Positions 1-64,000 of a stretch of DNA of 64,000 bases are shown piece by piece (position 1 is the stretch's first letter; each line of letters begins with the position of its first letter). The notes below the pieces were generated by a model. That model was not told the DNA's origin and searched no databases. It saw only the letters and a program-made list of their open reading frames with translations. The DNA comes from Bilabrum cf. latius (Eukaryota), in the NCBI GenBank assembly GCA_965178125.1, contig OZ237756.1, positions 496,001-560,000 of the forward strand. Reading direction: 5' to 3'. A program made the translations under genes and the position numbers.

Positions 1-3000
1 CGGCCGAGGCGGCAGCGGGAGGGGCTCCTTGGTCATTCCTCAGTGGCGCGCTGCTTGCATGCCGCTAGGACGAAGACGAGGGAGCCACAGGCCCGCGCGG
101 GGAGGAACTAAACGTGATGGCGCTCGCGGCGCCGTTGCCGGTTCCGTTGGTTCCGTTCACCACGCGGCCGCCGGCGCCATGCACGGGGGACACGACGCTG
201 TGAAGCTTCTTGCCCTTGCCCTTGCCCTTGCCCTTGCCCCTGCCTCCTCGCCCGATGCCGATGGCAGCAGCTGCCCCGCTCGAGGCGCCGCCTCTGGATC
301 CGGAGCCGAAACTGGCACCCGCCCCCCGACTGCCCTTGCCACTCTGCCCACCCCCCTCCTCCTCATCCTGTTCCGCCCTGGGTGAGCTGTCTGGGTAGGC
401 CACCCGCATGGCCCCGTCGATGTCGTGGTCGAATTCCATGGCGTCGAGCAGCTGGTTGAAGCGCTCCAGCTGGTCCACGACTCGTTCCCTGCTTTCTCCG
501 TCCACCACCATCGGCTCGCCCAGGTCCTCTGTGAGCAGCCGGCAGGTCCTGCCGATATTGATGGCGGTCTCCACCTTGTCTCCGGTGAGCACCCAGGTCT
601 TGATCCCAGCTCGTGCAAGGTCCGCGATGGTGCCGGGGACCCCTTCCTGCAGGCGATCCTCGATGGCCGTGGCACCAACGATCTCAAGGTCCTTCTCCAC
701 GTCGACCGCCACTTCGTGCAGCATCTCGTCCCTGTGGTGCACGTCCTCGTCAGCCTCCTTGTGCCTCTCCTGCCACTCTTCCACCTCGTCCTTGGACATG
801 CGCCTCCGGGCGATCACGAGGGTGCGCAGCCCAGAGGCAGCAAAGTCCCTCAGGTCGTCTTTCAGGGCCTGCAGCTTCGTGCCCTTGAGATCCCCTATGT
901 TGAGCATCGCAGAGTCTGCCCCCTTGCAGTACAGCCAGTACTCGTCATCCCTGGGATCCACCGTGATGACGCTCATCCTCTTCCGCTTGCTCGAGAACTT
1001 GTTCACACCGACCGACTTGAAGAACAGACGCTCGCCCTCCTCCCCATCACCCCCCGCCATGGGGTCCACCCGCACCGTCACCCCGTCGTTTGTCCTTCTC
1101 TCCAGCACGTACCCCATGTCCTTGGCGGCCCCAACCAGCGCCCCTTCGTCGGGCGACTCGGCCTGGTACACGATCTCGGTGCGTGTGCTGCCACCGCCGT
1201 CGTTGGTGCTGGATCCGGTCCGAGACCTCTCTCTTTGCCCACCACTTTGACCACCACTATCACCGCCGGTGCCGCTGTTCCCCGACTCCTGCGCCCCCGG
1301 CGACTCCTCTCCGTCCTCGCCCGACACCTCCACCTGCTCCGGCACAACGGTGTGACACACGGTCAGCACCGTGAGGAACGCGTCAACATCCTACCGCTTG
1401 CAACTGGCTGATGCGGAACCTTTCCCCTCGGCGCCGCGCGGGGACCCCCCTGCGGCGGTCTGCCTCCTCCCCTGCAGGATGTTGGTCATGCCGGCGTCCT
1501 TGAACTTCTTGTCGTTCCGCAGCTCGGGCACCCCAACCGAGGAGGCCCGCCTCGTGCGGCCACGCTGCCTGCCGCCCCCCTGCTTGGATCCAGAATCGGA
1601 ACGCGAGTGGGAGTGGCTTCCTGCCCCGCCCCGCTCCTCGTCCCCTCCCTGCTTCCTCTCCCTCTCCCTCTCGCTGAAGCTGTTGCGGTTGACGCTGCCC
1701 GAGATGGACACCGGGTTGGAGGAGCGGCGCGACGTCTGGGAGATGCGCGCCGGCTCCCTTGAGCCAGCCGGCCGAAGCCTGCGCTTGTTGTTCCGGTTTC
1801 TTTTGCCGCGTCCGTCGCGTGACGAGTGCGCGTCGCCGTCGTCGGTGGAAGGTTCGTCCAGATCGGGCAGCTTGCCGAACTGGACGCCCTTGATGCTGCA
1901 CACCTTGAACTCCATCACGTTGCGGGTGAGCGTGCCCTGTGCGGGGGGGAGGGAACTCAAAGAGAGTGAGGTGCATGAGTCATGTGACGAGTGCGTGCAA
2001 TGGTAGAAAACACGAAGGTGGGCAAAGCGGCAGTGCGGGCATGTGAGCAGCAGCAGGATGGCCACGACATGGGCACTGGGGCGAACAGTCCACCAGCCGT
2101 CAAGAATTCTATCAAAGTCACAGGAAATACGAGCAGTACCGAACTCACGGTTTTGTCGGAGAAGACATACTCGATCTAGCCCAGGTCCTGGTTCAGATTC
2201 GAGGTCCTTGCCTTGGCCGGCGTGTCGGTTTCTGGGTCGTACATCTCCGAGTCGGCGCCCACAAGCATCGCTTGAAGGTAGTTCACCATCTCCACTGTCA
2301 CATAGAGTGAAATCGGGATGCAGTTGTTGTACAGGATGATGAAGGTGAAGAGGTTTCCGATCCAGTCGGGGATCAGCAGATCGAAATCGCCCAGCATGAG
2401 GTATCCGAGCTCTGCCTCGTTCTACGCTTCCCAGATTACCACCGCGATGTCGCTGATGACTGATAGCAGAAGCTGGGCCCCGAAAATCACGCCGATGCAC
2501 AAGTTGATGATCTTCTCCACGTTGGAGAGCTTTGCTTTCCCCACGCCGGCCTTCTTCATGACCTTGGTGTCGCTGCCCGTTTGCATCACCACGCCCATGA
2601 CCCAGTGCGTGTTCCTCAGTGTGCACCCGCGCAGCAGCACGTTGTTGTAGCCGAGGGCCTGCCTGCCCGAGGCTGACTCGCCTGAGGGCGCCTTCTTGTT
2701 CTCGTTCTTGACCTCGAAGCGACCCGTGTACTTGTACAGCTGCGCGTTGGGCGGCATGGCGGTGACTGACACCTAGAGACCTGCGTAGTACTCGAGTTGT
2801 TCCTTGGTCGGCCTCAGGCTCTCGGTCATGTCGCTGAGGGGCGAGTCATCGTCATCATTGTTGTTATTTCCACCGCTGCTGCTGCTGCTGCCACCGGCCC
2901 CGCCGCTGGCTGCCCCCTTTGGCGTGCCGGCCCCGCTAGCCTGCTGCTCCTGCTTGTCGTGTTTGGCCACCTCGTCAGCGTCCATCATAACCGACTCCTG

Positions 3001-4077
3001 CTTCCGCAGCAATGCGCGGCGCCTCGGTTCCGCAATGTCCTGGTTGGACTCTATGCCCTTCTTCTTGATGCTCCTGGCTTCGCTCCTGTCGACGAGCAGC
3101 CCGCCCCCCGGCTCAGACGGACACGCCGCCTGCAGTGCCTTGAAGGAGGCCTTGCCCTTGAGGTCCGTCTCGCCGTCGATGTTGCTCGTCTCGATGTAGC
3201 AGGACCCGTCCGGCTTGCTGGAGTTGATCATGACCAGGTCTGCAGGGATGGGCCTGCCCCCCTTGATCCTGAGCACGTCACCCACCCTGATGTCCTTCCA
3301 GGCGACTTCGCGGTCCCAGTCCCCGTCTTTCGTCAGGACGTCCGCCTTGCGGTTGTTGGTCTCGGCGTCCGAGGCGTGCCGCTTCGAATCCTCGAAGCCT
3401 TCCTTGGCCATTGTGATTCCGAGTACCGCGATGAGGGGGCCCAGCGTGGAGAAAGGGGACAGGGGCGACGAGTACACTTCCGGGAAGTACCACCCGATGA
3501 GCATCATGGCGCTGATGACGAGGAAGTAGAGGTTGGCCACGCGGCGGAACTGCTCGAACAGGTTTGCCAGCGGGAATGTGATCCACTGGTACTTTGAGGT
3601 GCGGATGGAGTTGTCGGTGAACTGAGAGGCCTGGCCGCTGGGATCGTCTCCCCCCATCCAATCGAACGTTCGGTCCGGCTCATCTTCGGCGTGCAGGTTG
3701 CCCGATTCCGCTCGCTTCCTAGGATCCGAAGAGCCCCTTATGCGATTCTTTTGCCCGCTGCTGCTGCTGCTGCTGCTGCCGGTCGCCAAGCCGCTTCCTG
3801 ACTGCGACATGATTCCAACCGAGCCGGTGCCAGCGTTGTGCTCGTCGTCGTCCTTCTGATCCCGATCCTGCAGCAAGTGCTGATGGAGATTTTTACTGGG
3901 CGTATTTCCCATGCGTTGGCTGCCTGTCCCTCCGCCGGTGCTTGCCGGTGGATTATGAGGTGCAGACGGCCGCAACGGGCTCGATAGTTCCAATTGCCTT
4001 TTGAGGCCTGCCACCGGGTTTCTGATACTTGTGCCTGGCCTTGATTTGAAATCAGATGTGTTTCCCGCGCTAGCCAT
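1..4077 (-). CDS. P4-type ATPase (phospholipid flippase), 3' end outside the window
   Basis: Motifs [61 protein letters not shown](TAG)[25 protein letters not shown] and [18 protein letters not shown] intron at 2148-1937 splits DKT/GTLT. In-frame TAGs at 2773, 2422, 2176, 1391 and 65 are read through. Confidence 0.95.
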
Positions 4078-4567: not shown

Positions 4568-6018
4568 TCAATCATCTTGATCACTGATGGACTGGCCATC
4601 CGCCTCGAGTAGCTCCGCGCATTCCTCATGTCCTCCCAGCCTGGCCGCCTCCAGTGGAAGCACCCCAGTGCGAGTGCTTCCATCCTCTAGCACCACAGTA
4701 CCCTCGATTTCTAGCCCTCCTGCCAGCTTGCCCAGCCTTAGCCGCTTTCCCAGCTCCATGGGCCTGCCCTCTGCAGCTGCCTAGAACACCATCCCAGCGT
4801 CCCGCCTGGCATCCGCGGCATGCCGCCATCTGACCATGTGGCCGGTCCATCGAGTATAGTGCTTTATGCGGGCCGCAACTTGGTCTGGGCAGAATCGCCT
4901 CGCCGTATCGGCGGCGGTGAGTCCCTTCTGCGAGAGCGGATATATCGCACGAAGGGGGTCCAGAGGAGCATTGACCTCTGGTAGCAAGGCCGGCAACAAT
5001 GGGTGAAGCAGACTGGCGCTTACATTGTTGGTGATTGATCGATCAGCTCCGAACTCCATTAGTAGCACAGCACACGGGAGACCGCCGAACCTGACTGCAC
5101 CATGGAGCGCCGTGCTGCCATCCTGCGAATCATCATGATATGGCGAGCATGCTTTCGGGAATCGAGATGCGATGCAGCATTATAGGTAGATACAAATATG
5201 ATTGCTTGCATGCGATTGATTTGCCGACCTCACAGAATCTTGTTGGTTCATTTTGGCCCCGTTCTCGAGGAGGATTTGGGTGCATGTCGCGCGGCAGCAC
5301 GACGCAGCCGCCATCAACGGTGTCATGCCGCAACAATCTATGTGTATGTCGGCCCCATGTTGGATTAGTAGGCTTAAGCATTTGTCCCTGCCGTACGCTG
5401 CAGCCTTCCACACCGCAGTCTTGCCGTGCTGCGAACTCGGGAATGGGTAAACTTGGACTGAAAAAGCTTGAACAGCTTATGAGCGGCATACTCAGGCAAT
5501 CATTGCAGCAACTACCATGAAAAGAAGTATGATCTATACGATTGGGAGACTGAGACGCAGTATCATACTGGCATGGTACATACTGTGTGACTGCTGCTTA
5601 TTAGTCTTGCCAACTCCACCAATGCATGCTCAGCAAAGCGCACAATGACCCATCACGTCAATTGTAGGCTATATAAGTATATCGTAAAACCTGTTTGGCT
5701 TACTGAATCAACCTCGTCTAGCTTCTTATTAGTCACAGATTGGAGCGCCTAAGCTAGCGCTTCGACACTCCCCTTGTCTGTAGCGGCATGGATCGGATCA
5801 CTCCTGTATTAAGGATACTACATGGAAGTCAATAAACGTGTTGGGCCTGATTGGGCCAGTAACGGGACGCTGGGGGCCGTCAAAGGGCAAATCACAACTT
5901 TAGACGCCGATGGTGCCTGTAGGAAGTAGCCTACTTGCAAACTATTGCCGTCAGAACCAAACGTGTAGCCAGCATTTTCATGTTTAATTGTCCACAATCT
6001 TACATTTTTCCGTCCCAA
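4568..6018 (-). CDS. Multi-exon ankyrin-repeat protein ending in the shared RRDAGMVF(Q)AAAEGRPMEL module; start uncertain
   Basis: Ankyrin repeats GKTAVWKAAAYGRDKCLSLLIQHGAD, GMTPLMAAA, GSTALHGAVRFG and GLTAADTA separated by apparent introns. TAG at 4781 is in frame and the gene ends at TGA 4568. Confidence 0.7.
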
Positions 6019-6852: not shown

Positions 6853-8669
6853 ATGGCGAATATGGCATCGCCTGACGTGCATGAGTTTAATGTTCCTAAG
6901 CACCATGAGCTTCGTGTACAGACAGGGGCATTGAAGATGCCAGCATTCGCTACTGTATGTTTGTACCACGTTGCCGTACCCGACAAAGCCACAGCTTGAC
7001 TATATGTGCTTGCTCTGATGGTATTTCTTATCCATTTGCAGGTTAGAGGTGGACGATGCGAATTGTTTGGTGCCGAATTAGAGCAAGGACGCAAGACTAG
7101 GCTGCCGCCGCAATCGAGTGTTGCTCTGCATTCATTCAGCGGGTGCAAGGTAAGAGAAATCTCTTGGCAAGTTGCCCAAACTAGCCCGCCAAGACATATC
7201 TACAATGCTAGTTCATAATTTATCCGATGCAGGTTGAGTTGCAAGGCATGTCAACCTTGGTATCGAAGCCGTATGTCGTGGGAGAGACGCCAATGCTGGA
7301 CGTGGCACAGCTGCACGCCCGGTTGACCTTCAGAAGAAGAGAAGCGACAGCCGCGTGGGAGCTGTAGAAAGCGGTGAGCACTGGTGATGCAAAGAGCACA
7401 GCCATGTCATCTTCGTCATCGTCATCGTCATCGTCCTCCTCGTCAGCTGCTGCCGGCGCGAGCACTGGGCCCTCCAAACCGGAACTAGCACCCCGCGAGT
7501 GCGCGCCCATCCCCGCACCCGAGTGCTACGGCCCGCGGGTCATGATCGTGGGAGGCACGGACACGGGCAAGTCGACTCTCGCCCGCACCCTCGCTACGTA
7601 CGCCGCGAGGCTGGCTTACACGCCCGTCCTCGTGGACCTGGATCCGGGGCAAGGGGGCCTGTCCCTGCCGGGGACCGTGGCGGCAGCTCCGATCGATGCC
7701 TCACGGATCGATCCTACCGTCGGGTTCACCGGCCTGCAACCGCTGGTGCACTGCACTGCAAGCACCACACCGGACGCGCACACGAACGTGTACAGGGGCG
7801 CCGTCAAGGCGCTGGCCTCGAGCGTGAGGCACGTGCTCCGATCGAATGACACGGTCCGGGCCTCTGGATGCATCATCAACACGTGCGGGTGGACGGAGGG
7901 CAAGGGCTATTCCCTGCTGCTTGAGGCCATCGCTGAGTTCGAGCCTGACGTGATCGTGGTGATGGTGGGAGGGGCGTTGCTGGCCAACCTTTCGTCACAC
8001 CGAGATGGAATCGTACCGGGGGCGCCCGACGGGCACGGCATGTGGAAGGTAGACCCGAAGAGGGTGGGCAAAGGGGCAGCTGCTTCCGCTGGATCGCTGC
8101 CGCACGTAGGTGGATCAGCGAGCGGGGCTGGTGACCCGGGTGCCTCCGGAGCTGGGATGGGCCTGCCGGGCACTGCTGACGTGGCCGTGAAGAAGATGGC
8201 CGCATCGGACGGAGTGCATAAGCGCAGCAGGGAACAGCGGCGCACGGCCAGGGAACAACGGATCACTCGGTATTTCTTCGGTCCCTCGGGACCAAGGTAT
8301 CTCCCCCTAAGCCCGGCCATCCTTGACCTCAAAGTGTCGGACATCCTCGCCCTGAGGCTGAATGGAGAAACGACCGCCAGCGTGCACCTGGCAGTGGGGG
8401 AGAAATCCATGCTAAAGGATGTTAGGAGCGAGGTGATAGATATCGAGGGGGAGGCCGAGTCCATCGTGAACGACGTCTGGGCCGTGTCAATGGCACCTCC
8501 CGACGCATCGCACGACGAGTTGCACGAGCACCCCGTGGCTGGATTCGTGCAGGTGCTTCAGGTAGATGCAAAGAGGGAGGGTGGGGCGGTGGTGCGGCTA
8601 CGGGTGCCGAACCCTGGTCCGTTGCCGAGCAAGCTCTTTCTGGTCACGGGGCAGTCCTTTGTTGAGTAA
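6853..8669 (+). CDS. CLP1: Clp1 polynucleotide 5'-kinase / mRNA cleavage factor II subunit
   Basis: N-terminal ELRV and CELFGAEL exons with two GT-AG introns. P-loop GGTDTGKSTL, VDLDPGQG and IINTCGW motifs. One in-frame TAG near 7365; stop is TAA. Confidence 0.9.
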
Positions 8670-8748: not shown

Positions 8749-10269
8749 TTACCGCCCAAATCCACGGATCCTCCTGTCGCCCCGCAGGTCCTTGACCACC
8801 ACTGTGCCCCTCCTCTCCACACCCATGTCCATGATCCGCTTGCCCCTGTTCCCTGGGCTCATCAGGCTACCGAATCTCAGCTGCATCGCGATCTCATCGT
8901 CCGGCGGTTTCTGGTTCTTGCCCTCAACGTATGCCCACCACCCTCGCTCCATATGCTGTTTGGATAACGGAATGCCTGCAACGAACGGGAGGTCGTCAGG
9001 GTGCGGCTCCGAGTCGTCTCTCTTCCCCGTACCGGCGTCTGCAGCGCCTGCGGGAGCAGCAGTGCTTCCAGCAGACTGGGCAGCGTCGGATGCCCCTCCA
9101 CCATCGTGCGATGCATCTTCACCACCGTCATCACCTCCGGCACCGGCACCAGAGGCGGCAGGTGCCGATTCACCAGCACCCTCCTCACCACCATGCGCTG
9201 CACCCTACCCCTCCTCTTCCTCACCGTCCTTCCCCTCCCCCTCCCCACTCGCAGCCCTCACGACCTGTGGGCCGCTGCCATCAGCTCCACTGCCTTCAAC
9301 AGCCTAGCCCAATTTGGCGCTACCAGCGTCCTCGTCCTCACCTTTGCTCGGTGCATCTGCAGCACCAGCAGCCTCCTCTACTCCAGAGGATTCTCTCTTG
9401 ACCCCCGAATCCTCTCCCTTTGCGTCCTATTTCTCTTTTTGCTGCTATTCCCACTCTGATTTCAGCTTGTCGATGGCTGCCTCGCCCAGCCCCAGAGCCC
9501 CGCACCTGGCGATGGCCACCATCAGGTGACCCACGGTCGCATCCTCGTGCATCTCGATCGTCTTGTAGCGCTTGCCGCCCACCAAGGGAAAATTCTTGCC
9601 AATGACATCGATAGACACCGCCTTTCTCCTCTCTAGGTCACGGGTAACCTCCTGCAGGTTTGAGGGGCGCAGGGCGGCGGGCGGGGGCGGTTTCTCGGGG
9701 CCCGGCACATCGGTCGGGAAGGAGGCCGCACCGGCGGTATCCAAGGCATTCTCTGACAGCCGACGGATGAGCTCAGCGACCGCGGCTGCTTTCTCAGCGG
9801 CTGTTCCCTCCCCGCTTCCGCTTCCGCTGCCGCTGCCCCTGCCCCTGGTACCACGAGGCGGGGTGGCGGTGCTGCCTGACGCCCCCGGCTTTGCGGCGGG
9901 TGCCGCAGCCGGCGCTGCTGCCGTAACACCGTCCACGAAAACAAAGCTGCCGCGCTTGAGCACTTTCTCTGCCACAAGGGTTTCGATTTTCGTGGCGCTG
10001 TCGTCTGCCCCCTCGTTGAGCAAGGGGCTGTCGGCGGATTCGCCCAGCCGGAAGGATGGATCGGATGCTGCCGGGCACTCATAGGACTGTGGTGGACTTG
10101 CAAAGTGGTTGAAGGGCGGCATTATGATGGTGTAAACTATTCTGCAGAACATCAGCGAAACAGCTGCAGGCAATGCCATGTTTATTGGCTTGCCGGCTCG
10201 ATGGCTTCCGTCGTTCCTGGTGTGGAGAAACATGCTCACCTTCGACTGTAGCAGGCGCACTATCTGCAA
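8749..10269 (-). CDS. Hypothetical protein, possibly with ubiquitin-like segments; 5' end uncertain
   Basis: ORFs 9445-10269 and 8749-8952 are in the same frame and are joined by TAG read-through. Ends at TAA. Confidence 0.5.
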
Positions 10270-10586
10270 AAGAAGTATGTGATTCTAATACAATATATGG
10301 GGCTGCAATTACACAGATATGTGTGCATGGGCCGCACTACTACCGCGAACTCGGGCAACTTACCTTCTCCTTGAGATCGGTGACAGAGCAACTGGGATCA
10401 ATGTCTGCACGGTCCACCCCCAGCGCGTGCTTAATTCTTAAAAGAAGGCCTTTACTTTTAGGCATCGTATTATCCGTATTTTGCCGCACTGTATGCGATC
10501 AAGCTCATCTGATATATATCGCAAAGTGCACGCATCGAGCACACCAACGGCAACTGCAACCTCTTTGTGCATTCACGCGAAGAAGC

Positions 10587-11972
10587 ATGCTTTCTGCTGT
10601 TGCAATTCTGTCGATCACGATACTGACCGTAGCCTTGGGCCGGCGTGTCCGTGATTCCTTGCTGAATGTCTCTGAGGTCACGTGGCTGCCGGAAGCAGGG
10701 GCATACACGGATCACAACTCCAGGTTTGTCGGATCGCCCAGTCTTGTGAAGGTCGGTAACCGCTGGCTTGCATCGCACGATTATTTCTTTCATACGCCTG
10801 TGGGGACCGTGAGCGTATTTCAGTCGACGGACGAGAGCGGAGTGGAGTGGGAATTCAGAGCGAATTTGACGGGGATCTACTGGGCTCAGCTGTTCGCCCC
10901 CGATGGACCAAACGGGGACGCATACCTCATTGGACCTGAAGGAGATGAAACTGGCAAAGGCAACCTCCGAATTTCGCGGTGCGCCGCGCCATGCGACGGC
11001 AGCGGTTGGGAGGAGCCGTCCACGCTGATCGCTGGGACAGCTGAGCGGATGTTCCATGCGGCCCCCACGCCGGTCGTGCACCACGGTCCCACGGGACAGC
11101 TGCTCCGATCCATGGAGGTGCACGGCACTGCGGTGCCGGAGGGCGATTTGGGCATCGTCATGCTAGCGGCGAGCGCGGGGTGCAGACCGCTGACAACCCC
11201 GGGCTGCTGGGCCGTATCCGATCCGATCCTGTGGAACTCAACCTGGTTGCAACCGGCCGCAACTGCCGCGGGTCTTCATCATCACCAAGTTTGGTCCGAA
11301 GCAGTGCGCGGCACCCTCGGTTCCGCAGCCGAGACGAGGCAGTGGGAGGAAGCCAACGCGATCGTCGATCCTGAGACAAACAATGCAAGCGTCCTCGTCC
11401 GACTCGACGCTCCCCTCCACGGCTGCACCACCATCGACGGTTGCAACCGGGCCGCACTGCTCAGCTGGACCCCAAGCGCCGCCGCCATCACAAGCACAAG
11501 CGACTCGACCGCAACAACCGCCCTGCCACAAGGGCAGCAACTGTCACCGGATGCCGGCTCTCTTCAGTTCAAGAAGATCGTGTCGATGCCCACGGGCTGC
11601 AACAAGTTCATCGTGAGGGCTGATATTGGCGCCGCGCAATCCGGCAACGGAACCTGGTTCTACGCCCTGTCCAACCCGGTGGACAAGGACGGCATCGCGG
11701 CGGGCACGTGCGGGCAAAGGAACCGAGCTGTGCTCAGCAGGTCTCGGGACCTCGAGAACTGGATCGTGTGCGAGCAGGTGCTCTTCGATGACACTGGGTA
11801 CTCGCCTTCGGACAGCGTGGCGCACACAGGCCTGCAGTACATTGATTTCAGGTTCGACGGGGCGGACATTGTGATGGCGATACGTGCGGGGTACAGGGGC
11901 TCTGTGACGTACCACGATGCTAACAGGCTGCTGGTGAAGCGGCTGAGCAACTACGAGGCCTTGTGTGCGTGA
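10587..11972 (+). CDS. Secreted sialidase-like / BNR-type beta-propeller protein, intronless
   Basis: Hydrophobic N-terminus followed by GSPSLVK..WLASHDYF, VFQSTDESGVEW, YWAQLF, LSRSRDLENW, GLQYIDFRFDGADI and YHDANRL, resembling bacterial exo-alpha-sialidase-like proteins. Stop is TGA. Confidence 0.65.
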   Translation: MLSAVAILSITILTVALGRRVRDSLLNVSEVTWLPEAGAYTDHNSRFVGSPSLVKVGNRWLASHDYFFHTPVGTVSVFQSTDESGVEWEFRANLTGIYWAQLFAPDGPNGDAYLIGPEGDETGKGNLRISRCAAPCDGSGWEEPSTLIAGTAERMFHAAPTPVVHHGPTGQLLRSMEVHGTAVPEGDLGIVMLAASAGCRPLTTPGCWAVSDPILWNSTWLQPAATAAGLHHHQVWSEAVRGTLGSAAETRQWEEANAIVDPETNNASVLVRLDAPLHGCTTIDGCNRAALLSWTPSAAAITSTSDSTATTALPQGQQLSPDAGSLQFKKIVSMPTGCNKFIVRADIGAAQSGNGTWFYALSNPVDKDGIAAGTCGQRNRAVLSRSRDLENWIVCEQVLFDDTGYSPSDSVAHTGLQYIDFRFDGADIVMAIRAGYRGSVTYHDANRLLVKRLSNYEALCA

Positions 11973-12180: not shown

Positions 12181-13391
12181 GGGGGGGGACAACAGGTGGT
12201 GGTAGGTACACCAAGCGTTGAGGACGAGGGCTACGCTACGCTCGCCCCTCCTTTAAAGGCATATTTAGCAACTCAAGTGTTTCCCCTATAAACCTAAATG
12301 ATTTCACAGGGGGTTCCCCAAGAACCCCTATAGAACCCCTCTATGTACCCATTTTCAGATATAAAATTTACTCCTACGAAGTAGGGGTAAATTGAAGAAT
12401 TCTAATATTTAACCCCCTTATAAACTCTAACAGCAAAGACAGAGATGTTTTAGTAAAGTAGGAAAAAATGAAGAAATTAACCAAGTGTCCAAAATATCTC
12501 TGTGTTTGCTGTAGGAACGGAAGGATGAATTCCCAAGAGACCAAGAGACCAACCGAGGATTTCCCCAAGTGAACAAGGTATTTTATCAAGAGACCGAGGT
12601 ATGTTCCCAAGCGACAAACCGATAAACCGACCGATGAACCGACCGATGAACCGACCAAGGATTTCCCAAGGATTTCCCAAGGATTTCCCAAGGATTTCCC
12701 AAGGATTTCCCAAGCGACTAAATTGTTCTCCGAAGCAACCAAACCGATTACCCAAGAGATGATACATTATAAGGAAAACGAAAACGTATTTTAAGTCCCT
12801 TTGGAAAAGTCCCCCAAAAATTGAGAGATTTTACAGGTCAATTTTAAGAGACTTAGAAAGAATAAATATATTTTCCAATTAAAATTAAATGTTGTAATTC
12901 CTATGATGCCACCATAAAAATTAAAAGGAAAACGAAAACGTATTTTAAGTCCCTTTCGAAAAGTCCCCAAAAAACTTGTCAATTTTACTAATGCTAACGC
13001 CGAATGGGGTTCGGGGTTGATGTGGCGATGCGTTCGAGACTCGAACACAGGCTCCGGTCTACCAACGCGAGGTTGCAACCGCCAGTGCGACCAGCAGCTT
13101 GCGAGGCATTCCCTCGTCTCCTTCCTTAGGGAAGGGGGCGGGGCAGCGCGGCAGTGGCCGTTCCGGCTCATGCCGTTGTTTTGTTTAGTATTTATGTTGA
13201 TTGAACTGGAGACGAAGTGTGTCGAGTAAGCATCGTTGCATCAAGGTCAATTATAAGAGACTTAGAAAAAATAAATTAAGTTCCCTATTAAAATTAAATG
13301 TTGTAATTCCTATGATGCCACCATAAAAATTAAAAGGAAAATAAAAAACAAATTATAATTGTTTTCCAATTAAAAACACAAAAATTGATTG
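12181..13391 (+). repeat. Left terminal inverted repeat (~956 bp plus a 255-bp insertion)
   Basis: Reverse complement of 28519-29473 apart from the 12989-13243 insertion, about two substitutions seen by eye and a G8 versus C7 terminal run. Confidence 0.95.
12989..13243. mobile_element. GC-rich 255-bp secondary insertion in the left TIR (short copy)
   Basis: Absent from the right TIR, whose empty site reads AATTTTAC|AGGTCAAT. Both arms match 26851-27212. No target-site duplication. Confidence 0.85.
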
Positions 13392-13407
13392 CCTAAAGTG
13401 GAAATGT

Positions 13408-13441
13408 CGTACCTTAAGCATAACTTACGTAGTCTATAGTA
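13408..13441 (+). promoter_or_regulatory. Putative bipartite virophage promoter CGTACCTTAAG...CGTAxTCTATA
   Basis: The same arrangement recurs upstream of the helicase (~14826-14858) and pPolB (~16541-16572). Confidence 0.65.
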
Positions 13442-13452
13442 CAACCACATAA

Positions 13453-13692
13453 ATGGCAAAATCACAAAAGGAACTCGAGAATTACATCTTGGCGACCAAA
13501 GAATGTCTTAAATCAGTCCCGTTTATTACAACACGAGAAGCATACGATATGGCCAAAAAGTACCTTGAATTTACAAAGACTATTATTTGGATTAATTATG
13601 ATGATGACGATGACCTGCTTGCTGACTTTGAGGAAGCTAAAGATTTAAGTCAAATTGTAGTTGAATGGCACGAAAGTACCAAAACCAAATGA
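13453..13692 (+). CDS. Virophage hypothetical protein (79 aa)
   Basis: ATG to TGA ORF preceded by the conserved CGTACCTTAAG...TCTATAG motif. Confidence 0.65.
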   Translation: MAKSQKELENYILATKECLKSVPFITTREAYDMAKKYLEFTKTIIWINYDDDDDLLADFEEAKDLSQIVVEWHESTKTK

Positions 13693-13757
13693 TTTTTTCC
13701 CAAGAATTATTTTCCCTACTTTACAAAAGTAAGGAGAATGATACAACTATATAGCAA

Positions 13758-14813: not shown

Positions 14814-14870
14814 GATGCCCCGTATCGTACCTTAAGGATTATTTTCGTATTCTATAGTACAACAACAAAA

Positions 14871-16533: not shown

Positions 16534-16590
16534 GTGAGTTCGTACCTTAAGAATAATTATCGTATTCTATAATATAATAGATACTATAGA

Positions 16591-18432: not shown

Positions 18433-18488
18433 CCAAAGCACCGCAGTTTACCGGCGGAACGGCATAAAAGTGTTTAGAAAAGATTGAA

Positions 18489-18761: not shown

Positions 18762-18797
18762 TTTTGTATTCTATAGTATTATACTATAGACTTAGAT

Positions 18798-20081: not shown

Positions 20082-20107
20082 TTAGTATAGACTTGTATTT
20101 AAAAAAC

Positions 20108-20725: not shown

Positions 20726-20780
20726 TGTTTTGATATACTATATACCAAGACAAATATTTATTGGTTTACCCTTTTCATAT

Positions 20781-53300: not shown

Positions 53301-53448
53301 TTTCCAGCCTAGCGATTCGATGCGATATATCCGGAGGAAGCTCCAAGTCTGTCGCAACGCATTCTGGGGCGCATGCCAGCATTTCAATCACATCCAAGCC
53401 GGCTCTATCCTTGCGCTCATGCTGAGCGAACTTATTCCACGATGCCAT
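44368..53448 (-). CDS. ~3000-aa protein with N-terminal RWD/UBC-like domain and PP2C (PPM) phosphatase
   Basis: MPDNYPESPP, then QGKRGQMEDAH, VCDGHGG, DGTT, VGDSRCVLCRGG(Q)AV..TRDHK, LAVARAVGD, LACDG and GSGDNVSVVVV. Seven ORF-track segments lie in one frame joined by TAGs; ends at TGA 44368. Confidence 0.85.
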
Positions 53449-53896
53449 AATTGTCGTGATCGGATGCAAGACCGCGAAGTCTCAGTGCAGGAAGCCCTGG
53501 CCGCACAGCGGTCGGGTCCGACCGAAACCGATTCAATGCAACACCAAGATGCTCCGGCACCACAGGACAGAACGCAGACGACTTGCCAATGTTGTGATTG
53601 AACACGCAACGATACTATGATAGGCTGCGAAAATGATTGAATCAATCTGCCCCGGGGTGCGCTGTTGCCGCTCGGCATCCCGACCGATCAATCCAACCGG
53701 CCGGTTCCGGAAATGCAGTGTGCGCGGCGCCAAGCTGCCGTCTGCAGTGCCATTACGGGAGATACCACCGATAGTATCGGCTCGATAGTTGCAGTCTGCT
53801 CCGCAAGATTTGTTCAACATATATCAATCACCACACGGCTGGCCTGTGGGTTGATACCGACTGTTGAGGAACTAATTTGAATCGCTGCTAGCCGGC

Positions 53897-56068
53897 ATGT
53901 CGGACAGGTGGAGCGATCGCGGCGGTGAATTCGACGAATTCGGTCGCAGGCGGCCCCCAAGAGCTGCTGGAGCATCTACTTCCGCGTCATCTGGCGACGC
54001 AAATGCCCCAGCTCCAGCGAGGGCGGAAGACGATGCTCCCCGACGAGACCGGAGGTTCGACGACAGCGATCGCCCACTTGACAGGTCCCGTGGCGGCTGG
54101 AGCCAAGACGATGGAAGAAATGATAGGCGTGGACACGACTACGATCGTCGCGGCCCGCGCGAAGAACGGCGGGGGGAGGCGGGACCGCCGGGTGATTCTC
54201 GTCACGGCGAGCGCGAGCACTATAGGCGGCCGCACGATCGCGGAGGCTACAGCGCGGATCGAAGGGAGTACCACCACGGCCGCGGGAATTACAACGATCA
54301 CGGCGGCGGAAGGTACGGTTAGAACCGAGGGTACCACCCCCATTCGCACCGGGGGGGTCCCCGGGGCGGAGGTTACAACCACCCCCACCGCCGGGGGGGG
54401 GGCAAGGACGACGGCAACGATGAGGACCGTGTCATGGAAGACGACATGGATGATATCACGAGGGACGCGAGGACAATCTTCGTGCAGCAGATGGTCAGCC
54501 GAGTGACTGATGACTGGGTCAGGGATTACTTCGAGCAAGTAGGCCCTGTCGCCAGGGTCAAGCTGATCAAGGACCCCCACACTAGGAAGTGCATGGGCAT
54601 GGGATACGTGGAATTCAAGAATCTGGACTCTGTCCCCAACGCTCTCCTGCTCAACGGACAAAAAATGTCCATGGAGACAAGGGCCTCCACTGCTGACGGC
54701 CTGCCGATCATGGTCTCCACCTGCGGGGCGGAGAGGGCGTACGCCCACCAGGCCGAGGACGAGATCGAGGAGGTGGCAAAAGAGAGAACCCTCTACATCG
54801 GGAATCTGCCACCGGGCCTAGAAGCCGCAGACGTCCGCGCCATCGCTGAGAAGATGGGGCCGGTCGCATCGGTCAAGCTGGAGGAGGCCCAGGAGGAGGA
54901 GGACGAGGACGAGGACAGCGGAGAAAGTGAAGATGAAGACACGGAAGGAGGCGGCGGCGAGAAACCCCCAGGGAACAAGAAGCCCCCAGGGAACAAGGAG
55001 GGCTACGCGATCGTCAAATTCCTCGACGACCAGGGGGCGACCAACGGACTGCACGGCCTGGCCGACATCAACATCGCCGGGTACACGCCCCATTTGGGGC
55101 TGATCTCAAAGAAGGGGGAGGTGCATGGGGCCAACAACGAGATCTGGAGGCCCGGTGACAAGGAAGCCCGGCGGTTATCGGCATCTGCCAAGGCCCAGAT
55201 CATCGCGACCCTCAGTACTGCGACTCAGGCCACCCTGTCCAAGCTTGGAGGGGCCGGCGCGCTCGCAGCAGCGGCTGCCAGCGCATCGAATGCCGCCACG
55301 GTTGCAGCAAGGGAGCAGAACGGCTCCGAATCCCTGGTGGCACCTGGGCTAGGTGAGTACCTCAAGAAGCAGTACGGGGAGGGCAGCGGTGTGACGAGTG
55401 GATCGGGAGGGGACGGGGGTGATGGTGCCGGCAGCGGGGAAGAAGCTGGGAACGGTGGCGCGACGAACGTGGTGGAGGGGGAGGGGATCGAATGGGACAA
55501 GACGGTTGGGAACCCCTCGCGGTGCGTTAGGATCATGAACCTCTTCGATCCAGCGAAGGTTCGCGAACTTTCGGACGAGGAGTACGACGATTGGAAGGAT
55601 GATCTAGAGGACGATGTGGGGGCGGAGATTGACCGCAAGGGCAGGATGGTGCACCTACGGGCCAAGAGCTCGGACGAGTGCGGGTCTGTGTTCGCGTGCA
55701 TGCGGAACGTCTCGGACGCGATTTTGGTTGCAACGGCCATGGCGGGGCGCTACTACGACAAGCGCAGGATCAAGGCCGAGTACGTCCCGGAAACAGAGTA
55801 CATGGACCGGTTTCCAAAGGTCGCGCCCAGGGTGGCCAAGATCGACGCGAGGCTGCTAGCCGGTGCAGGTGCCGGTGCTGCAGCAGCTGGGGCAGGACAG
55901 GGATCTGGAGCCAGTGGGGGCTCTGGTGCGCAAACCGGAAGTGCGGCAGGCGGCTCGCCTGCCGCCCCTGCATCGTCGTCGTCCCAGGCGCCTGCCTCAG
56001 CGATGCCGTACATGCCCATGGCGGCGATGCTGGGCGGGCCCAACTCGATCGCTGACATGTACATGTGA
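53897..56068 (+). CDS. RBM39: RBM39/CAPER-like splicing factor (two RRMs and a UHM)
   Basis: R/D-rich N-terminus, RTIFVQQM...GMGYVEF, LYIGNL and C-terminal SRCVRIMNLFDP...DLEDDV...GRYYD. TAG at 54320 is in frame. Confidence 0.8.
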
Positions 56069-56739: not shown

Positions 56740-58834
56740 TCAAAGGGAGTCTCCGGGCATACCTGGACCACAGCGATCCGGATCCAAGGGGTTCGCTGAC
56801 AGCAAGTCAGAGCTGGCTTCGACGGTGTGTCGCAGTCGGTTCAGATCCTTGCGGCACCCGGAATGCTTATCTGATCCGGAATCCGGATCCTGCACTACGG
56901 TTGTACTCTCTAGAAACACATCTGAGAGACCGAGAGCCTCGGCCATCCGCGTCTGAACTGGATCACCACGGCTTCCCGAATGGTACGGACACTAGGGCTA
57001 CATCTCCGTACTCCTAGTCCTGGTTGCCAGCATTGAGGAAATTGAAGAAGTCGGTTGCGATCCCATCCTCATTCCGCAGCATCTTCAGCGCACTCAGCGC
57101 ACTCATCGAGATAGTTAGGATGTCATTAGGTCCCCCAGCATTGATACTCGGACGCTTCGTGACACCTGCTTGCAGTACATACCTCTTCTGCAGCCAAGCT
57201 AGGATTTTGAGGTCAGAAGGCAAGGACCCCGTGGAAGGGCGCTCACCAGATCCGGCCATTTGCATCCTGCACAGCAAGATGCTTGTGTATTGGACATGGG
57301 CACCGGCGCCATTCATTCGAATGAGGTCCGACAGGGGCTGCCTGATGTCAGGAGTCATCATTTTCATCACGTCCTTTGCCGACATCCTAAGCTCGTACCG
57401 GATGCCTCCGCTTGTGATGCGGCGCGCACGGCGCACGTCTACTCCTTCATGCTGCAGCTAGTGCTGGATTTCAGACGGGTCCACAAGCCGGATCTTGCCT
57501 GCGGAAGGGATGTGAGGAATGCACTGCACGAACAGATCGCTCGGCGGGTCGTAGACTTCCGAGTCGGACGATACACCGCCCATTCGATCCCCTGGTTTAC
57601 CTGCCTTGCGAAGCCTAGTCCGGCGTGGAGGGTCCGCGTGGCCTGCTCCACCTGTCGCGGGCCCTGGATCGCTGCCGCCGCTAGCGCCTTGCCCAGCAAG
57701 AGCCACTGTCATGGTGTCGAGGCCCTCATCTTCCTCCGAATCAGATCCGTCCACGCTCGCACCAGGGCCCGGGTTCAGCGATTGACCTGTGCTAGAGCCT
57801 GCCGAGGCGCTCGTTGTGCCCGTATCTTTGCTCGCATGGCTCGTTCCTGCGGTAGGCCCTACTGATAGGTCGGTGCCACGGAGAGCAGCGGCTGTTCCTT
57901 CTCCCTCCCTTCCTGCAGGTTCAGCACTCGGTTCGTCTCTGCTGGGCTTACCAATGGCCTGCTAGAGCATGTCAATAAGCTAGAAAGCGAGGTACGACCA
58001 AGACTGAAATTCGCCTCGGGCAACCCTACCGGTACCTGCTGACGCAGTGCGTCCGGAGTGGGTTGCTCGGAGTGCAGCTACCTTCTTCCGCAGGTCATGT
58101 GTGCCCTCCGGCGATGCGATGATATGCACTAATTGATGTAACTTGTCAATGGGGTCCGATGCAGACATCCCGATCAGTGCTGCCCAGTCTTCTGGCCCGG
58201 CCGGCATCGGATGCCCGCTTACTGACAGCAGTGCTGCTGCTTTCTTGGCCAGCCCGGGGAGACCTTCGATGCGCTGCCCTTTTCCAGTGGCCTCTACATT
58301 TGCATTCCAGATAGTGTTAGACAAGAACCGCAGTAGACCAGCAGTGGCCATGTGTGGCCTTGCCGTCCCATCCTTGATTGCATCCTGCTCTGCCTCATAG
58401 ATCGCAAGCGCCATCTCTGCAATTTTGTCGCCTTCTGCGTCGTGATAGAAGAGCAGAACTGACCAAAATTGCAATCTTTTAAATAAACTGGTTTAACTAG
58501 ATGAATGGTAGATGCCATGAATGCTGTACTTACCAGCCGTTTTCAGCGACGAATCTTCAGAGTCCCTTGCTTTGCCAACCGCCTCAGAAAAGGCAGCTGC
58601 GGTTTGGCCGATCACAGTAGGTTCTCCAGCCGGATATACCAGCTCGAAGTGTCCTGCTGGGTTCCATGCTAGCCACGTTTCGCCTTGTTTGGCGACGTGG
58701 CGCGTCATTTCGCCAGCTGCTGCAAGGTCCAATTGGTGGCGCCGCTCACGCCGGGTGAACCTTGCCATTGTATCGATTGATTGAACTTCAACCAACAGCA
58801 TCCCGAGCACCAACGCGCTAGCCTGCGCGAGCAT
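56740..58834 (-). CDS. Unknown host protein, paralog of the gene at ~60636-62464; boundaries approximate
   Basis: Shared N-terminus MARFTRRERRHQLDLAAAGEMTRHV and similar C-terminal ISMS.L.AL.ML.N..GIA..F..FL. Confidence 0.5.
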
Positions 58835-59111
58835 TGTGGCTGTAAGCTACCGAGAAAATGTCGCATTCGATCGGTCCCGGCGGAAAACTCGAAATTGAAA
58901 CTCTCTCTCCAGTGGTGGTGCCTCACGAGCGAACCTTCCCAGCAAATCGGTGAACCCTCTCCACCGGTCGAAGCAAATTGTCTTGGATCACGCAAACATG
59001 CCACACACTCTGACCGACACAGGCATGACTTCAAATGCATAGCAACTGTTAATGCGTGTCCTTGATGGTTAGCTAGATTGCTCAGAACTGCAAACGCTGT
59101 TCAGCAAACCG

Positions 59112-60430
59112 ATGGGCAAGCTTGTGGCTACTACGGCAATAAATCGGTCATATATGAGGCCAGGAAAACATCACCGAGCTCGCTGGAATCTTTGGCAGGA
59201 CTCTTGGGGCGGTTTGCCAGATCATCGACCGCTCTTTGATTTTCCAGCAGAGTACAGGGCGTATGCTCTTCCAGTCGTGTTGGGAAGATGTTCATGTGAT
59301 ACGCTTCTCCGATTGCTACAAGCCGGCAGCCCTCCCGAGTCCACGGATATTCTGGACGTGTATGACTATTCGGCAAAGAATATACCTCTAGTAAGATCTT
59401 TTCGCAGCCAGGTATGCTGAAGCCACGGTCGCCAATCACTGCTTAAGTGCAACTCCAGCTTTGACAGCTCGCAGTACGATCAGCTCAAGTTTTTCCGATG
59501 CCCGATGGTAAGGTGCATTCGGGAATGCCTCAGTAATGAGCTGGAGCTGCTTCTCTTCTTTGCCAATGGGTACCCACGGCGTCACCAGCAGTTTAAAGGA
59601 GTGAGTTTGACACGCTGATGGCTCGAGAAATGCAGTTACGACGCAATTCATTGTGTTCAGGCATTGAGCTTGTACCTTACTATTGTATGCAGGCTATCCG
59701 CTCCCGTCGGATCATACGGACATTTCAGTACGACTCTGTGATCAGGCGGGACTCACCCGGGCAACGATCCGACCGGAGCATCGGATCGGACCAGCACTGG
59801 AGGCGTTGCATTGTTCCGTTGCTGCACGCTGGTATGCCCATTGCGCGTGATTTCATCGTTGGAGACACGTATGAGCTGTTGTGCGACGCGTGCCACCTCC
59901 AGGATGTCACCGGTATTACCTTCGATGACCAATTGGAAGGTGCCATGCAACACCCAGACACGTGGCTCCGCACATTGTTTCAGAGACTCAAGCCCGAACA
60001 GCTGAAAGGAGTGCAGTACTACAACCCATTCAGGAAGCCCATGCGTCACATGTTACATTGGCGAAGGGCTGTGGAGGCCAGAAGAGACGCGGGCATGGTG
60101 TTCTAGGCAGCTGCAGAGGGCAGGCCCATGGAGCTGGCCAGGAGGCTGAGGCTGGGCAAGCTCAGGGGCGGGCACATCCGGTCAGGAGAGATTACCATTG
60201 GGAGTGCAGTGCAAGGAGGATACAATGCGCTGACGGCGGCATGCGCTCGTGGGCACGGGGCCTGCGTGCGTGTGCTTGCCGACGGGCTGCTGGATGCAGA
60301 CGAGTACGTGAAGGGTCGGGATGGTGGTGGGAGGGGCTGCTGGGAGGTGGCTGTGGGGGATGCGGTGGGTGTGCTGGAGGAGATCCGTGAGGATCCATGG
60401 ATGCTATGCGGGGACTTGCCGGAAGTTTAA
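59112..60430 (+). CDS. Repeated host family gene (MGKLVATTAINRSY...RRDAGMVF(Q)AAAEGRPMEL)
   Basis: Paralog of 62742-64000 at an offset of 3630 bp. Introns probable; stop is TAA 60430. Confidence 0.6.
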
Positions 60431-60635
60431 CTAGGGCCTGACAGCCGGTCTCTGCACCAGTGTCTATAGTCAATGTTCTCGTGGCGCTGACGAAGCTCTC
60501 AAAGATGAAGTTGGATCATGCTGACTAACTGCAAAGGACGGTCCTACAAATTGCGCTGCATCCGCAATGACCTCCTTTGGACCTCAACACAAGAGATCAC
60601 ATCGGATTCTCAGCCGGCACAGACTCAAGAACCGC

Positions 60636-62464
60636 CTATCCCTCACGAAAACTCAAGAATCGAAGAAACTTGCTTGCGATGCCCCTGGCGTTCTGCAGCA
60701 TCCTCAGTGCGTTCAGCGGACTCATGCTAATTTCGATGATACCGCTGTGCTTGCCGGCATTGGAAATCGGTACTAGCTTGATCTTTGCCTTGATCTTTCG
60801 TCTGCCAAACCACTCTTGTATCTTGGCTGCAGCAGCATCGGTTGGGGCGAAGACGACTTTCTTTGGACTCGCTTTCACCTTCTTGAGCAGCAAAGTGCTA
60901 CAGAACTCAACACTGCCACCGTCTGAGGCGTATCCGAGCTCTGCCAGGAACTCGCGCTTGGGCGCCTTCTGCATGAGGGCCTCCAGTTGTTTGTCTTCCA
61001 TGCTGATCTCGAATGGATGGTGTGGGCCGTCCAGGCCACGTACCCTGCGCACCTCGAAGCCTCTGTGCTCCAGCCACGACCTGATCCCTGCCGCTGTTGT
61101 TGGCTTCTTGCCACCACTAGCGCCGGCGCGCGGGCGCCACCACGCGTACACCGAGCCTGGCACCGCGTACCTCTCCGAGTCGGTTGATTCCCCCCTCACT
61201 GAGATCTCTGGCCCACCAGCGCCCCGGAGTCGGGGCTCGTCTTGCGATACAGCCTCCCCGGCTGTTGGCATGTAATATGATTCGATGCCCTTCCCGCCCA
61301 TGCTGTTGAATTCTCCTTCTTCCGAGCTAGAGCCGTCCATGCTCGCCGCTGCGTCTGTGTCTTGGGCTTGCTCTCCTCCTCCCTGTGTCGAGCTGCTCCC
61401 TGAGTCCACCACTCTGGGACCCTTGGCATGCTCAGTTGCACCTCCCTCTGCAGCGGTAGTCCCTCTTTTTATATCGCTCGCTTGGCGGTCATCGGGGCGG
61501 ACCGAGAAGGGTGTAGATCCGGCTCCTGCTTCCTCGCCTGCCCCTGCTCCTTTCGCGTCGAGTAAACTCCTTGCAGCTTCGACATCCACTGTGCCGAGCT
61601 TGTCTAAAAGCCAGAACGCGAGGGTAGCCGACTAACGCCACCGCTTTGCATCGCCGGTGACACTGGGCGATCCTGTCGAGCCCGTCCTAAAGCTCATATC
61701 CATGACTTGCATTACCTCATGTAGCCGACCCCGGGACTCTCCTGACGCGGATGCCGTTTGCAGATTGATAAACCTAGTGAGAGGGTCGGTGCCAGTGACT
61801 TTGAGCTGTGCCACGAGTAGATCCGGCCCGGACTACATCGGTTGAACACTAGGTGATGTCAATGCCGCAGAAGCCCGGGCCAACTCGTGAAGCCCACCAA
61901 TGCGGTGCCCCATTCGAGTTACTAGTGTGTCTGCAGCTTGTAGAGTATCAGACACAAAGTGAAGTAAGCCAGCTGTTTCAATATACGGAATGGGAGTGCC
62001 CATCTATGCTGCCTTGTGATCTGCTCTATAGATCGCAAGTGCACTGGCGGCGATTTCATCTCCAGCTGCGATGAATGAGAGGATTTGTGCAAAGTTTTAC
62101 GGCAACTTGATCGCAAAGTCAGTTTCAGTAGGAGCCAAACCATCAACGTAGCAATACACTTACATTGTGCTCGCACTGGTTCGTCCTCAGCCTCCAATGC
62201 CGCACCAACAATCCTTTGGAAAGCTGCTGGATTCGGGTCAATGGCGGTATCTTCACCATCAGCTGAAATGAGGCTGAAGTATCCTGCTGGGTTCCATGCT
62301 AGCCACGTTTTGCCTTGTTTGGCGACGTGGCGCGTCATTTCGCCAGCTGCTGCAAGGTCCAATTGGTGGCGCCGCTCACGCCGGGTGAACCTTGCCATTG
62401 TATCGATTGATTGAACTTCAACCAACAGCATCCCGAGCACCAGCATGCTAGTCTGCGCGAGCAT
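60636..62464 (-). CDS. Unknown host protein, paralog of 56740-58834; boundaries approximate
   Basis: Near-identical 5' block and diverged but alignable C-terminal domain. Confidence 0.5.
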
Positions 62465-62741
62465 TGTGTCTGTAAGCTACCGAGAAAATGTCGCTTTCGA
62501 TCGGTCCCGGCGGAAAACTCGAAATTGAAACTCTCTCTCCAGTGGTGGTGCCTCACGACCGAACCTTCCCAGCAAATCGGTGAACCCTCTCCACCGGTCG
62601 AAGCAAATTGTCTTGGATCACGCAAACACACCAGACACTCTGACCGACACAGGCATGACTTCAAATGCATAGCAACTGTTAATGCGTGTCCTTGATGGTT
62701 AGTTAGATTGCTCTGAACTGCAAACGCTGTTCAGCAAACCG

Positions 62742-64000
62742 ATGGGCAAGCTTGTGGCTACTACGGCAATTAATCGGTCATATATGAGGCCAGGGAAGCG
62801 GTATCATGCCCACGGCGATCTATGGTGGGAATCTATGGGTAGTATGCCAGACAATAGGCCGAATCACGATTTTGCATCTTCGTACAAAGCATATGCTCTT
62901 CCCGTGATGCTTGGTCGATGTTCGAGCAGCATCGTACATCGCGTGTTGAAGGCCGGTAGCCCTGCAGAATCCACGGATGCCCTGGATGTCCATGATTTTA
63001 TTGCAGCGAACGTACCGCTTGTAAGTTGAAGTTCCCGAAGGTCTGGACAATAGCCATGTTTTGCGAATAGCTGTCAAACTGCAACTATGCTAGCTATGTA
63101 TCACTTTTTCGGAATGCAGTACGAACAGCTTAAGTTTTTTAGGTGCACGATGGTACGATGCATTCGAGAATGCTTGCCAGATGAGCTGGAGCTACTTGTC
63201 TTCTTCGCCGCGGCAAGCCCGCGACGGCAATTCCTGACGAGCGTGAGTTCCACACAGCACTTCCTCTTTATACTACCTATCATGCGCTGTTCAATCACAT
63301 GGCTGCTACTCAAAGCTGCACGCAGCCCCTACGCTCCCGTAGGATCATTAGGACCTTTCAAGACTGGGAATTCGACTGGCGCGATCATCCTGGGCAGAGG
63401 TCTGTGGGCACCTTGGGATGGAGGAGACTTTGGAGACTTTGCATTGTGCCCCTGCTCCATGCCGGGATACCCATGCCTCCTGACTTTGACCATAAAACGG
63501 ATGGCTTATTCAAGGATGGAAGCTCTCTTTGGAGAGTCACGGGCGTCACGCTCGAAGATGAATACAATGGTCTAATGTTTGACCCAACTACGTGGCTCCG
63601 CACCTTGTTTCAGCGACTCACGCCCGAGTAGCTGAAAGGAGTGCAGTACTACAACCCATTCAGGAAGCCCATGCGTCACATGCTCCACTGGCGAAGGGCT
63701 GTGGAGGCCAGAAGAGACGCGGGCATGGTGTTCTAGGCAGCTGCAGAGGGCAGGCCCATGGAGCTGGCCAGGAGGCTGAGGCTAGGCAAGCTCAGGGGCG
63801 GGCACATCAGCCTGGGGCAGATTACCATTGGGGGTGCAGTGCAAGGAGGATACAATGCGCTGACGGCGGCATGCACTGGTGGGCACGGGGCCTGCGTGCG
63901 TGTGCTTGCCGACGGGCTGCTGGATGCAGACGAGTACCTGAAGGGTCGGGATGGTGGTGGGAGGGGCTGCTGGGAGGTGGCTGTGGGGGATGCGGTGGGT
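62742..64000 (+). CDS. Repeated host family gene, truncated by the window end
   Basis: Aligns with 59112-60430. TAG at 63629 aligns with CAG at 59999. Confidence 0.6.

Follow-up and report, generated by a model that had tools for sequence, protein, structure and literature searches.

Host genes and an integrated virophage with in-frame TAG codons

The window analysed here, the whole of a 64,000-nucleotide stretch of contig OZ237756.1 (positions 496,001 to 560,000; assembly GCA_965178125.1), consists of GC-rich eukaryotic DNA (GC 0.55-0.66) broken by a GC-poor block (0.38) at ~12-29.5 kb, where a virophage is integrated. Host and virophage genes alike contain the codon TAG in frame. An earlier note on this DNA, made from its letters alone, had proposed that UAG encodes glutamine (Gln, Q) and that UAA and UGA remain stops, and the open reading frames (ORFs), homology, spliced contigs and residue statistics described below support this proposal. 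We consider it very likely that UAG is translated, most probably as Gln, that termination occurs at UGA and UAA, and that the virophage is written in the same code, a pattern which we take to be that of NCBI table 15.

Three long host ORFs run through TAGs to a TGA end. A giant ORF with a PP2C domain (44368-53481, minus strand; 3037 codons) contains seven of them, with first bases at 52929, 49392, 48387, 47364, 46122, 45180 and 45093, a PTEN-like phosphatase ORF (39532-44169, plus strand; 1545 codons) contains 16, and a coiled-coil ORF (34298-37558, minus strand; 1086 codons) contains eight. The PP2C catalytic domain appears to be split by very long low-complexity inserts; motifs of its first half seem to lie near residues 575-830 (judged by eye, with no domain match there), and the second half is matched by Pfam at residues 1347-1488. 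The minus strand also carries a P4-ATPase gene, in which the exon including 2176-2178 is followed by a GTGAGT intron start and the next exon continues the protein, and a CHMP1 (Snf7) exon (33160-33450), within which two TAGs are found (33391-33393 and 33235-33237). A p24/GOLD protein with a long tail ORF is encoded on the same strand; its Pfam p24 match ends at ORF residue 234, and three GT..AG introns lie at 38695-38877, 38973-39060 and 39168-39272. Clp1, on the plus strand, ends at the TAA of 8667-8669 and was recognized from a Pfam Clp1 C-terminal match and PDB chains. The GC-rich part also encodes an RRM protein (RBM39 in the earlier note) and, at 56.9-64 kb, a set of genes duplicated in tandem.

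The integrated virophage (12182-29473; 17,292 bp, GC ~0.38 vs ~0.6 outside) carries 88 in-frame TAGs. It is bounded by perfect terminal inverted repeats of 807 nt (12182-12988 and 28667-29473) and flanked on both sides by the 5-bp direct repeat ACAGC. An rve-chromo integrase (13665-14813; six in-frame TAGs), a DUF5906 primase-helicase (15220-16533; nine) and a family B DNA polymerase (16573-18432; five) are encoded on the plus strand. The minus strand encodes the major capsid protein (20781-22559; 13 in-frame TAGs, one of them two codons ahead of the terminal TGA; Pfam Sputnik_MCP_1st and MCP_V20_C), the penton or minor capsid protein (22620-23885; 17; Pfam V18-19) and an AAA-type packaging ATPase (25865-27271; ten, TAA end). 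All of these were assigned by Pfam except the ATPase, whose matches fall below the curated cut-offs. The morphogenetic module of a provirophage (double jelly-roll capsid, penton, packaging ATPase) is present. The signature of integration is there too: within host DNA, the element has an integrase, inverted repeats at both termini and a duplicated target site. Judged from its sequence the provirophage looks complete, and the perfect terminal repeats together with the 5-bp flanking repeat suggest that integration was recent. The terminal repeats also hold short tandem repeats (12618-12714 and 28941-29037), and the tandem repeats of the virophage termini include about five copies of the 11-nt unit CCAAGGATTTC.

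TAG is read as a sense codon

Taken together, the PP2C, PTEN and coiled-coil ORFs (5668 codons) contain 31 TAGs and neither TAA nor TGA in frame 0; the two other frames of the same stretches hold 77 and 126 TGAs, 7 and 14 TAAs (224 in sum) and 35 and 56 TAGs. In nine virophage ORFs (3980 codons), TAG likewise occurs in frame 88 times and TAA and TGA never, against 234 TAAs and 207 TGAs (441 in sum) in the other frames. TAG occurs 76 and 57 times in those frames and is thus about as frequent in frame as out of frame in the virophage, which uses the codon more freely than the host (88/3980 vs 31/5668 codons). ORFs of such length, for example a 3037-codon frame without TAA or TGA, are not expected by chance.

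Homology continues past TAG in several genes. The P4-ATPase TAG at 2178 is located eight codons upstream of the catalytic DKT phosphorylation motif. That PP2C reads through TAG, as the earlier note had claimed, is borne out by the TAG at 49390-49392 in the catalytic domain: it is residue 1364, inside the Pfam PP2C match, and alignments with the PDB chains of PPM1A and PPM1B extend ~130 residues beyond it, across the remaining catalytic motifs. The chromodomain of the virophage integrase (residues 337-378) lies downstream of the last TAG of that gene (14574, residue 304), and the polymerase, capsid, penton and ATPase of the virophage align with a metagenome relative, the locus L002 described below, across many TAGs. 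With long ORFs, essential domains downstream of TAG and spliced contigs in which the TAGs are unchanged (see below), it is practically certain that TAG is a sense codon.

Other genes said to read through TAG proved less direct. The PTEN-like ORF does have its 16 in-frame TAGs, the first of which (39739) is upstream of the recognized domain, and the RRM protein has a TAG at 54320 that is also upstream of its recognized domain. Four of the five TAGs in the ORF assigned to Clp1 are non-coding, because the coding exon there (7018-7203) runs in another frame, and TAG 7365 alone is plausibly coding. As the N-terminal exon is separate and in a different frame, the stop-to-stop ORF 6909-8669 is not a model of the Clp1 gene. 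The N-terminal domain of Clp1 is encoded by this exon, and by eye an intron seems to end near 7230.

TAA and TGA remain stop codons

Among 21 complete ORFs, 16 end with TGA and five with TAA, and none needs an end at TAG. Over the 9648 codons of host and virophage, TAA is found 0 times in frame vs 255 times in the other frames, and TGA 0 vs 410 times. The two TAAs that had been regarded as true ends are both present and agree with their homologues. At the Clp1 stop, the Pfam C-terminal match covers profile positions 1-113 of 113, to the last residue, and the ends of the PDB Clp1 chains lie no more than a few residues from the TAA; the TAA of an ankyrin-like paralogue (60428-60430, plus strand) aligns with the TGA of another copy (32436-32438). 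The Gln-type codons of the virophage (n=235) comprise 101 CAA, 88 TAG (37%) and 46 CAG. As CAA outnumbers CAG in the AT-rich virophage, a TAA that encoded Gln should be found in frame there; that it never is argues against a code in which UAA and UAG (UAR) both encode Gln. In this window, TAA and TGA are stops.

TAGs are retained in spliced transcripts

Contigs of four public runs from three studies (X1, X5, X6 and X7) were compared with positions 34201-54200 of the window. In the DNA run X1, depth was uniform and splice joints were absent. The other three runs (X5, X6 and X7), which belong to two further studies, all showed the three GT..AG joints of the p24 gene on the minus strand (38694/38878, 38972/39061 and 39167/39273); since these occur there and not in X1, the three runs contain spliced RNA. 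Contigs of X5, X6 and X7 cover all seven PP2C TAGs, with no other letter and no gap at any of them. An X5 piece (34201-36674) covers seven of the eight coiled-coil TAGs and the listed X5 pieces six of the 16 PTEN TAGs, again unchanged and ungapped. The letters at the TAGs are identical in all four runs, no splice joint coincides with any TAG, and the sole listed letter difference in the 20 kb, G to A at 41248 in X6, is away from the TAGs. Splicing out or editing of the TAGs had been named in the earlier note as what would overturn its proposal. Because the spliced contigs keep the TAG letters unchanged, the TAGs are neither spliced out nor edited at the level of contigs, which lose rare variants, so that partial editing could escape notice.

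The 3037-residue PP2C protein is covered by contigs of the spliced runs. Contig depth over the bin containing the p24 tail (37536-38202) was 0 in X6 and X7 and 3.5 in X5, values that are not used as evidence here. The tract TAG CAG TAG CAG TAG CAG, which the earlier note had placed in this tail, is indeed present at 38015-38032 (minus strand); it is part of the predicted long tail ORF, ~90 codons past the end of the Pfam p24 match.

Environmental relatives of the virophage

A profile scan of metagenome contigs yielded five related loci (L001-L005; GC 0.44-0.48), the longest being L002, and in all of them TAG is the only one of the three codons that is found in frame. Gene by gene, L002 is 42-60% identical to the virophage in the window (58% over 601 columns for the capsid), and 11 TAG positions are common to the two. 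The capsid ORF of the relatives has 628 codons and seven TAGs, and the longest standard-code ORFs have <=294 codons. Three of these environmental loci (L001, L002 and L004) seem to be one and the same virus, or almost so, met in different samples. The closest capsid relatives in a library of 1.84 billion proteins are fragments of 133-270 aa, three of which end beside TAG positions of the window capsid (two just before TAG 384, and one that spans 448-584, next to TAGs 446 and 585). Such fragments are what standard-code gene calling would produce. A scan of IMG/VR gave no relatives of the virophage capsid protein.

The amino acid encoded by TAG

Gln had been described as conserved at the P4-ATPase TAG (2176-2178, minus strand), and the column agrees: among 120 aligned homologues, 115 of which are ungapped at this position, 109 have Q. 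The column of the TAG at 2424 (n=118) contains Q 28, E 28 and K 18. A further TAG of this gene, at 1393, is in a variable stretch and was set aside as residue evidence. The PP2C TAG (49390-49392) is opposite Q in PPM1B and K in PPM1A. Log-odds summed over four host columns are +4.56 for Q, -0.27 for glutamate (Glu, E) and -3.76 for T, so that Gln is favoured, but thinly. In one paralogue pair, as previously noted, CAG (59999-60001, plus strand) is opposite TAG (63629-63631). The pair 56963-58492 / 60597-62096 is too divergent to inform on the residue, scanning the duplicated DNA without regard to frame gave no information either, and the PDB alignments of Clp1 and PTEN have no TAG in their aligned part. 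Gln codons are not enriched beside TAG (4/62 vs a background of 4%).

The virophage provides more sites. Window TAGs aligned to L002 (n=61) are opposite Q in 15 cases, TAG in 11, lysine (Lys, K) in seven, E in six, R in four, A, M and D in three each, and other residues in nine. A likelihood test on 50 virophage TAG sites, with substitution frequencies estimated from the same window/L002 alignments, gave log-likelihoods (lnL) of -128.2 for Q, -144.7 for E and -149.8 for K, placing Q ahead of E by 16.5 and of K by 21.6 units. In a BLOSUM-sum version of the test, all 59 control codons were assigned their true residue. Expressed as frequencies, the TAG sites are opposite Q in 30%, K in 14% and E in 12%. 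True Q codons are opposite Q in 24-38%, and true K and E codons are opposite their own residue in 43-63%; the 30% observed for TAG therefore fits true Q codons, and not K or E codons. These data also bear on decoding in the host, because host ribosomes make the virophage proteins and ARAGORN detected no tRNA genes in the window or in L001-L005. For the virophage alone, a tRNA supplied by a giant virus is conceivable. Rfam gave no matches in the window, and eRF1 is not among the genes there. On these alignments TAG most likely encodes Gln, with a high degree of probability, and the Glu alternative that the earlier note had wished to see excluded is disfavoured in host and virophage alike.

Several observations weigh against UAG as a uniform Gln codon. 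Only four host TAG sites could be aligned, and most of the Gln signal in them comes from one column. The seven CHMP1 homologues have E (4), Q (1), V (1) and I (1) at site 1 and T (6) and S (1) at site 2, and animal PDB chains agree with these in having T/S at site 2, not Q. The reported GAG opposite TAG 32385 does exist in a paralogue, starting at 60377 and not, as had been stated, at 60376. The TAGs of L002 itself give nearly a tie (lnL Q -70.5 vs K -71.6), and in 150 distant capsid homologues (27-31% identity) Q is the majority in only 1 of 13 TAG columns, the columns being variable. That TAA and TGA are missing in frame follows in part from the way in which the ORFs themselves were delimited. 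The RNA label of X5-X7 in the records is a guess, with X5 flagged 'probably DNA', and the RNA nature of these runs rests on the splice joints. The failure of ARAGORN to find a tRNA gene in the window also belongs here, and a 64-kb sample leaves room for occasional termination at TAG.

Alternative explanations

These observations, and others, can be set against three alternatives to UAG as Gln. The least probable is the standard code, under which the TAGs would be removed or bypassed: they would lie in pseudogenes, unannotated introns or misassembled sequence, or be edited in the RNA or read through at a low level. Some of the TAGs originally listed are truly non-coding (the four in the Clp1 ORF), and partial editing could be missed in contigs that drop rare variants. 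Nevertheless, four runs from three studies have the same TAG letters, spliced contigs retain the TAGs with no joint at any of them, and by chance one would not expect a frame to run for 3037 codons without TAA or TGA. One TAG is moreover conserved in all four paralogue copies of the ankyrin-like module (60104, 63734, 32112 and 4783), and the relative L002, 42-60% identical, has TAG at 11 of the same positions. The standard-code explanation is already largely refuted, and we regard it as highly improbable. That UAG is sense but stands for a different residue, with Glu or Lys the nearest candidates, is also quite unlikely. GAG opposite TAG in one paralogue pair, E as the commonest residue at CHMP1 site 1 and tied with Q at P4-ATPase site 557, and the near equality of K and Q for the TAGs of L002 would all suit it. 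The virophage likelihoods, however, prefer Q to both by wide lnL differences, the host log-odds sum puts Q 4.8 above E, and the P4-ATPase column is Q in 109/115; TAG is opposite K or E far less often than true K and E codons are conserved.

The remaining alternative, unlikely as well and the least improbable of the three, is an ambiguous UAG, which is an amino acid inside genes and a stop in some contexts, as in Condylostoma, karyorelict ciliates and Blastocrithidia. Because the ORFs were delimited on the premise that TAG is sense, a TAG terminator would escape attention among them, the TGA of the capsid gene is preceded, two codons earlier, by a TAG, and the host has somewhat fewer TAGs in frame 0 (31) than in either other frame (35 and 56). 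On the other hand, 0 of the 21 complete ORFs need a TAG end, the virophage uses TAG no less often in frame 0 (88) than out of frame (76 and 57), and homology continues beyond the TAGs wherever it can be traced, namely in PP2C and the integrase chromodomain and, by comparison with L002, in the polymerase, capsid, penton and ATPase.

Proposed decoding mechanism

Under the reading preferred here, UAG would be decoded by a tRNA-Gln whose anticodon, CUA, pairs with UAG but not UAA. The eRF1 would have ceased to recognize UAG and would still respond to UAA and UGA, leaving TAG without any terminating role. A tRNA-Gln(CUA) and an altered eRF1 were proposed for Iotanema by Panek et al. (2017, PMC5304391), who argue that this is the only simple route by which UAG is read while UAA stays a stop.

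Comparison with known codes and virophages

Reassignment of UAG alone to Gln is described for Iotanema spirale, Protocruzia tuzeti and two phyllopharyngean ciliate lineages (PMC5304391, PMC11687900). The likeness to the present host is close: in each, UAG is translated, with Gln as the best-fitting residue, both UAA and UGA still terminate, and UAG is decoupled from UAA. The present host differs in being GC-rich (0.55-0.66), in its 88-183 nt GT..AG introns, and in a 212 kb contig in the DNA run, which we take to be unlike the gene-sized chromosomes of ciliates. Its GC content, introns and large contigs are, in our judgement, presumably not those of a ciliate. The host may be Iotanema or an unsampled relative, or a member of another known UAG-only lineage. 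Its closest database proteins are metagenome proteins of 51-62% identity. A quick single-gene tree of the P4-ATPase, which is not relied on here, groups the host with six metagenome proteins (Shimodaira-Hasegawa-like approximate likelihood ratio test, SH-aLRT, 95), weakly near ochrophyte stramenopiles.

The statement of the earlier note that only a few eukaryotes have decoupled UAG from UAA in their nuclear code is in line with PMC11687900, which lists Iotanema, an uncultured rhizarian, Scotinosphaera and a few ciliate lineages. The same source attributes UAR=Gln codes (NCBI table 6 type) to many ciliates, hexamitin diplomonads, oxymonads, ulvophytes and Amoeboaphelidium. Those codes share with the present one the reassignment of a stop codon to Gln; they differ from it in that here TAA is absent in frame from 9648 codons and ends five ORFs.

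The integrated virophage resembles the endogenous mavirus-like virophages of Cafeteria and the provirophages of Bigelowiella. These too are AT-rich and ~17 kb in size, carry an rve integrase and long inverted repeats at their ends, and are inserted, with a short target duplication, in the GC-rich chromosome of a protist. To our knowledge those virophages and their hosts use the standard code, whereas the element described here has 88 in-frame TAGs. The Polinton-like endogenous elements of Streblomastix strix are reported to be written in the TAA/TAG=Gln code of their host (Bellas et al. 2023, PMC10120064). In that case too an integrated DNA virus element follows the variant code of its host, which implies a long association. 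The present element differs from them as a virophage with a Sputnik-type capsid and penton and an rve-chromo integrase, in a TAG-only code that its environmental relatives share.

Full-text literature searches, which did not extend to supplements, found no virophage with a variant or TAG-only code and no description of this host. The type of code is already known, and a virophage lineage using it appears to be unreported. Since TAG makes up 37% of the virophage Gln codons and 11 TAG positions are common to a relative of 42-60% identity, a whole virophage clade, and by implication its giant viruses, could have co-adapted to UAG=Gln. We propose this tentatively, in combination with a host lineage not yet known for UAG/UAA decoupling, and judge the two together to have slightly less than an even chance of being right. 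If so, this would be the first virophage lineage in a variant code, and would make it possible to test in nature whether a reassigned codon shields a host from foreign viruses as its resident viruses follow suit. A host, a provirophage and environmental virophages with one variant code predict a matching giant virus and open the co-evolution of viral and host codes to study. Decoupling of UAG from UAA is rare, and each new case helps to test the co-evolution of eRF1 and suppressor tRNAs. In practical terms, standard-code gene calling breaks the genes of this organism and of its virophages.

Duplicated genes and a bacterial-type ORF

The tandem duplication at 56963-64000 has a period of 3,630 bp and three genes per unit. 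The units have diverged unevenly, with 94.5% identity in the ankyrin-like 3' module and 82% in the middle part, and the first gene is alike at the protein level only. The ankyrin-like module has an extra copy at 32008-32434 and an inverted copy at ~4725-4840. The ORF at 10128-11972 (plus strand; 614 codons) contains zero TAGs and has no Pfam match. In the protein atlas, the clusters closest to it consist of bacterial exo-alpha-sialidase/BNR proteins (score 0.92), and by this resemblance it may be a bacterial-type gene in this eukaryote.

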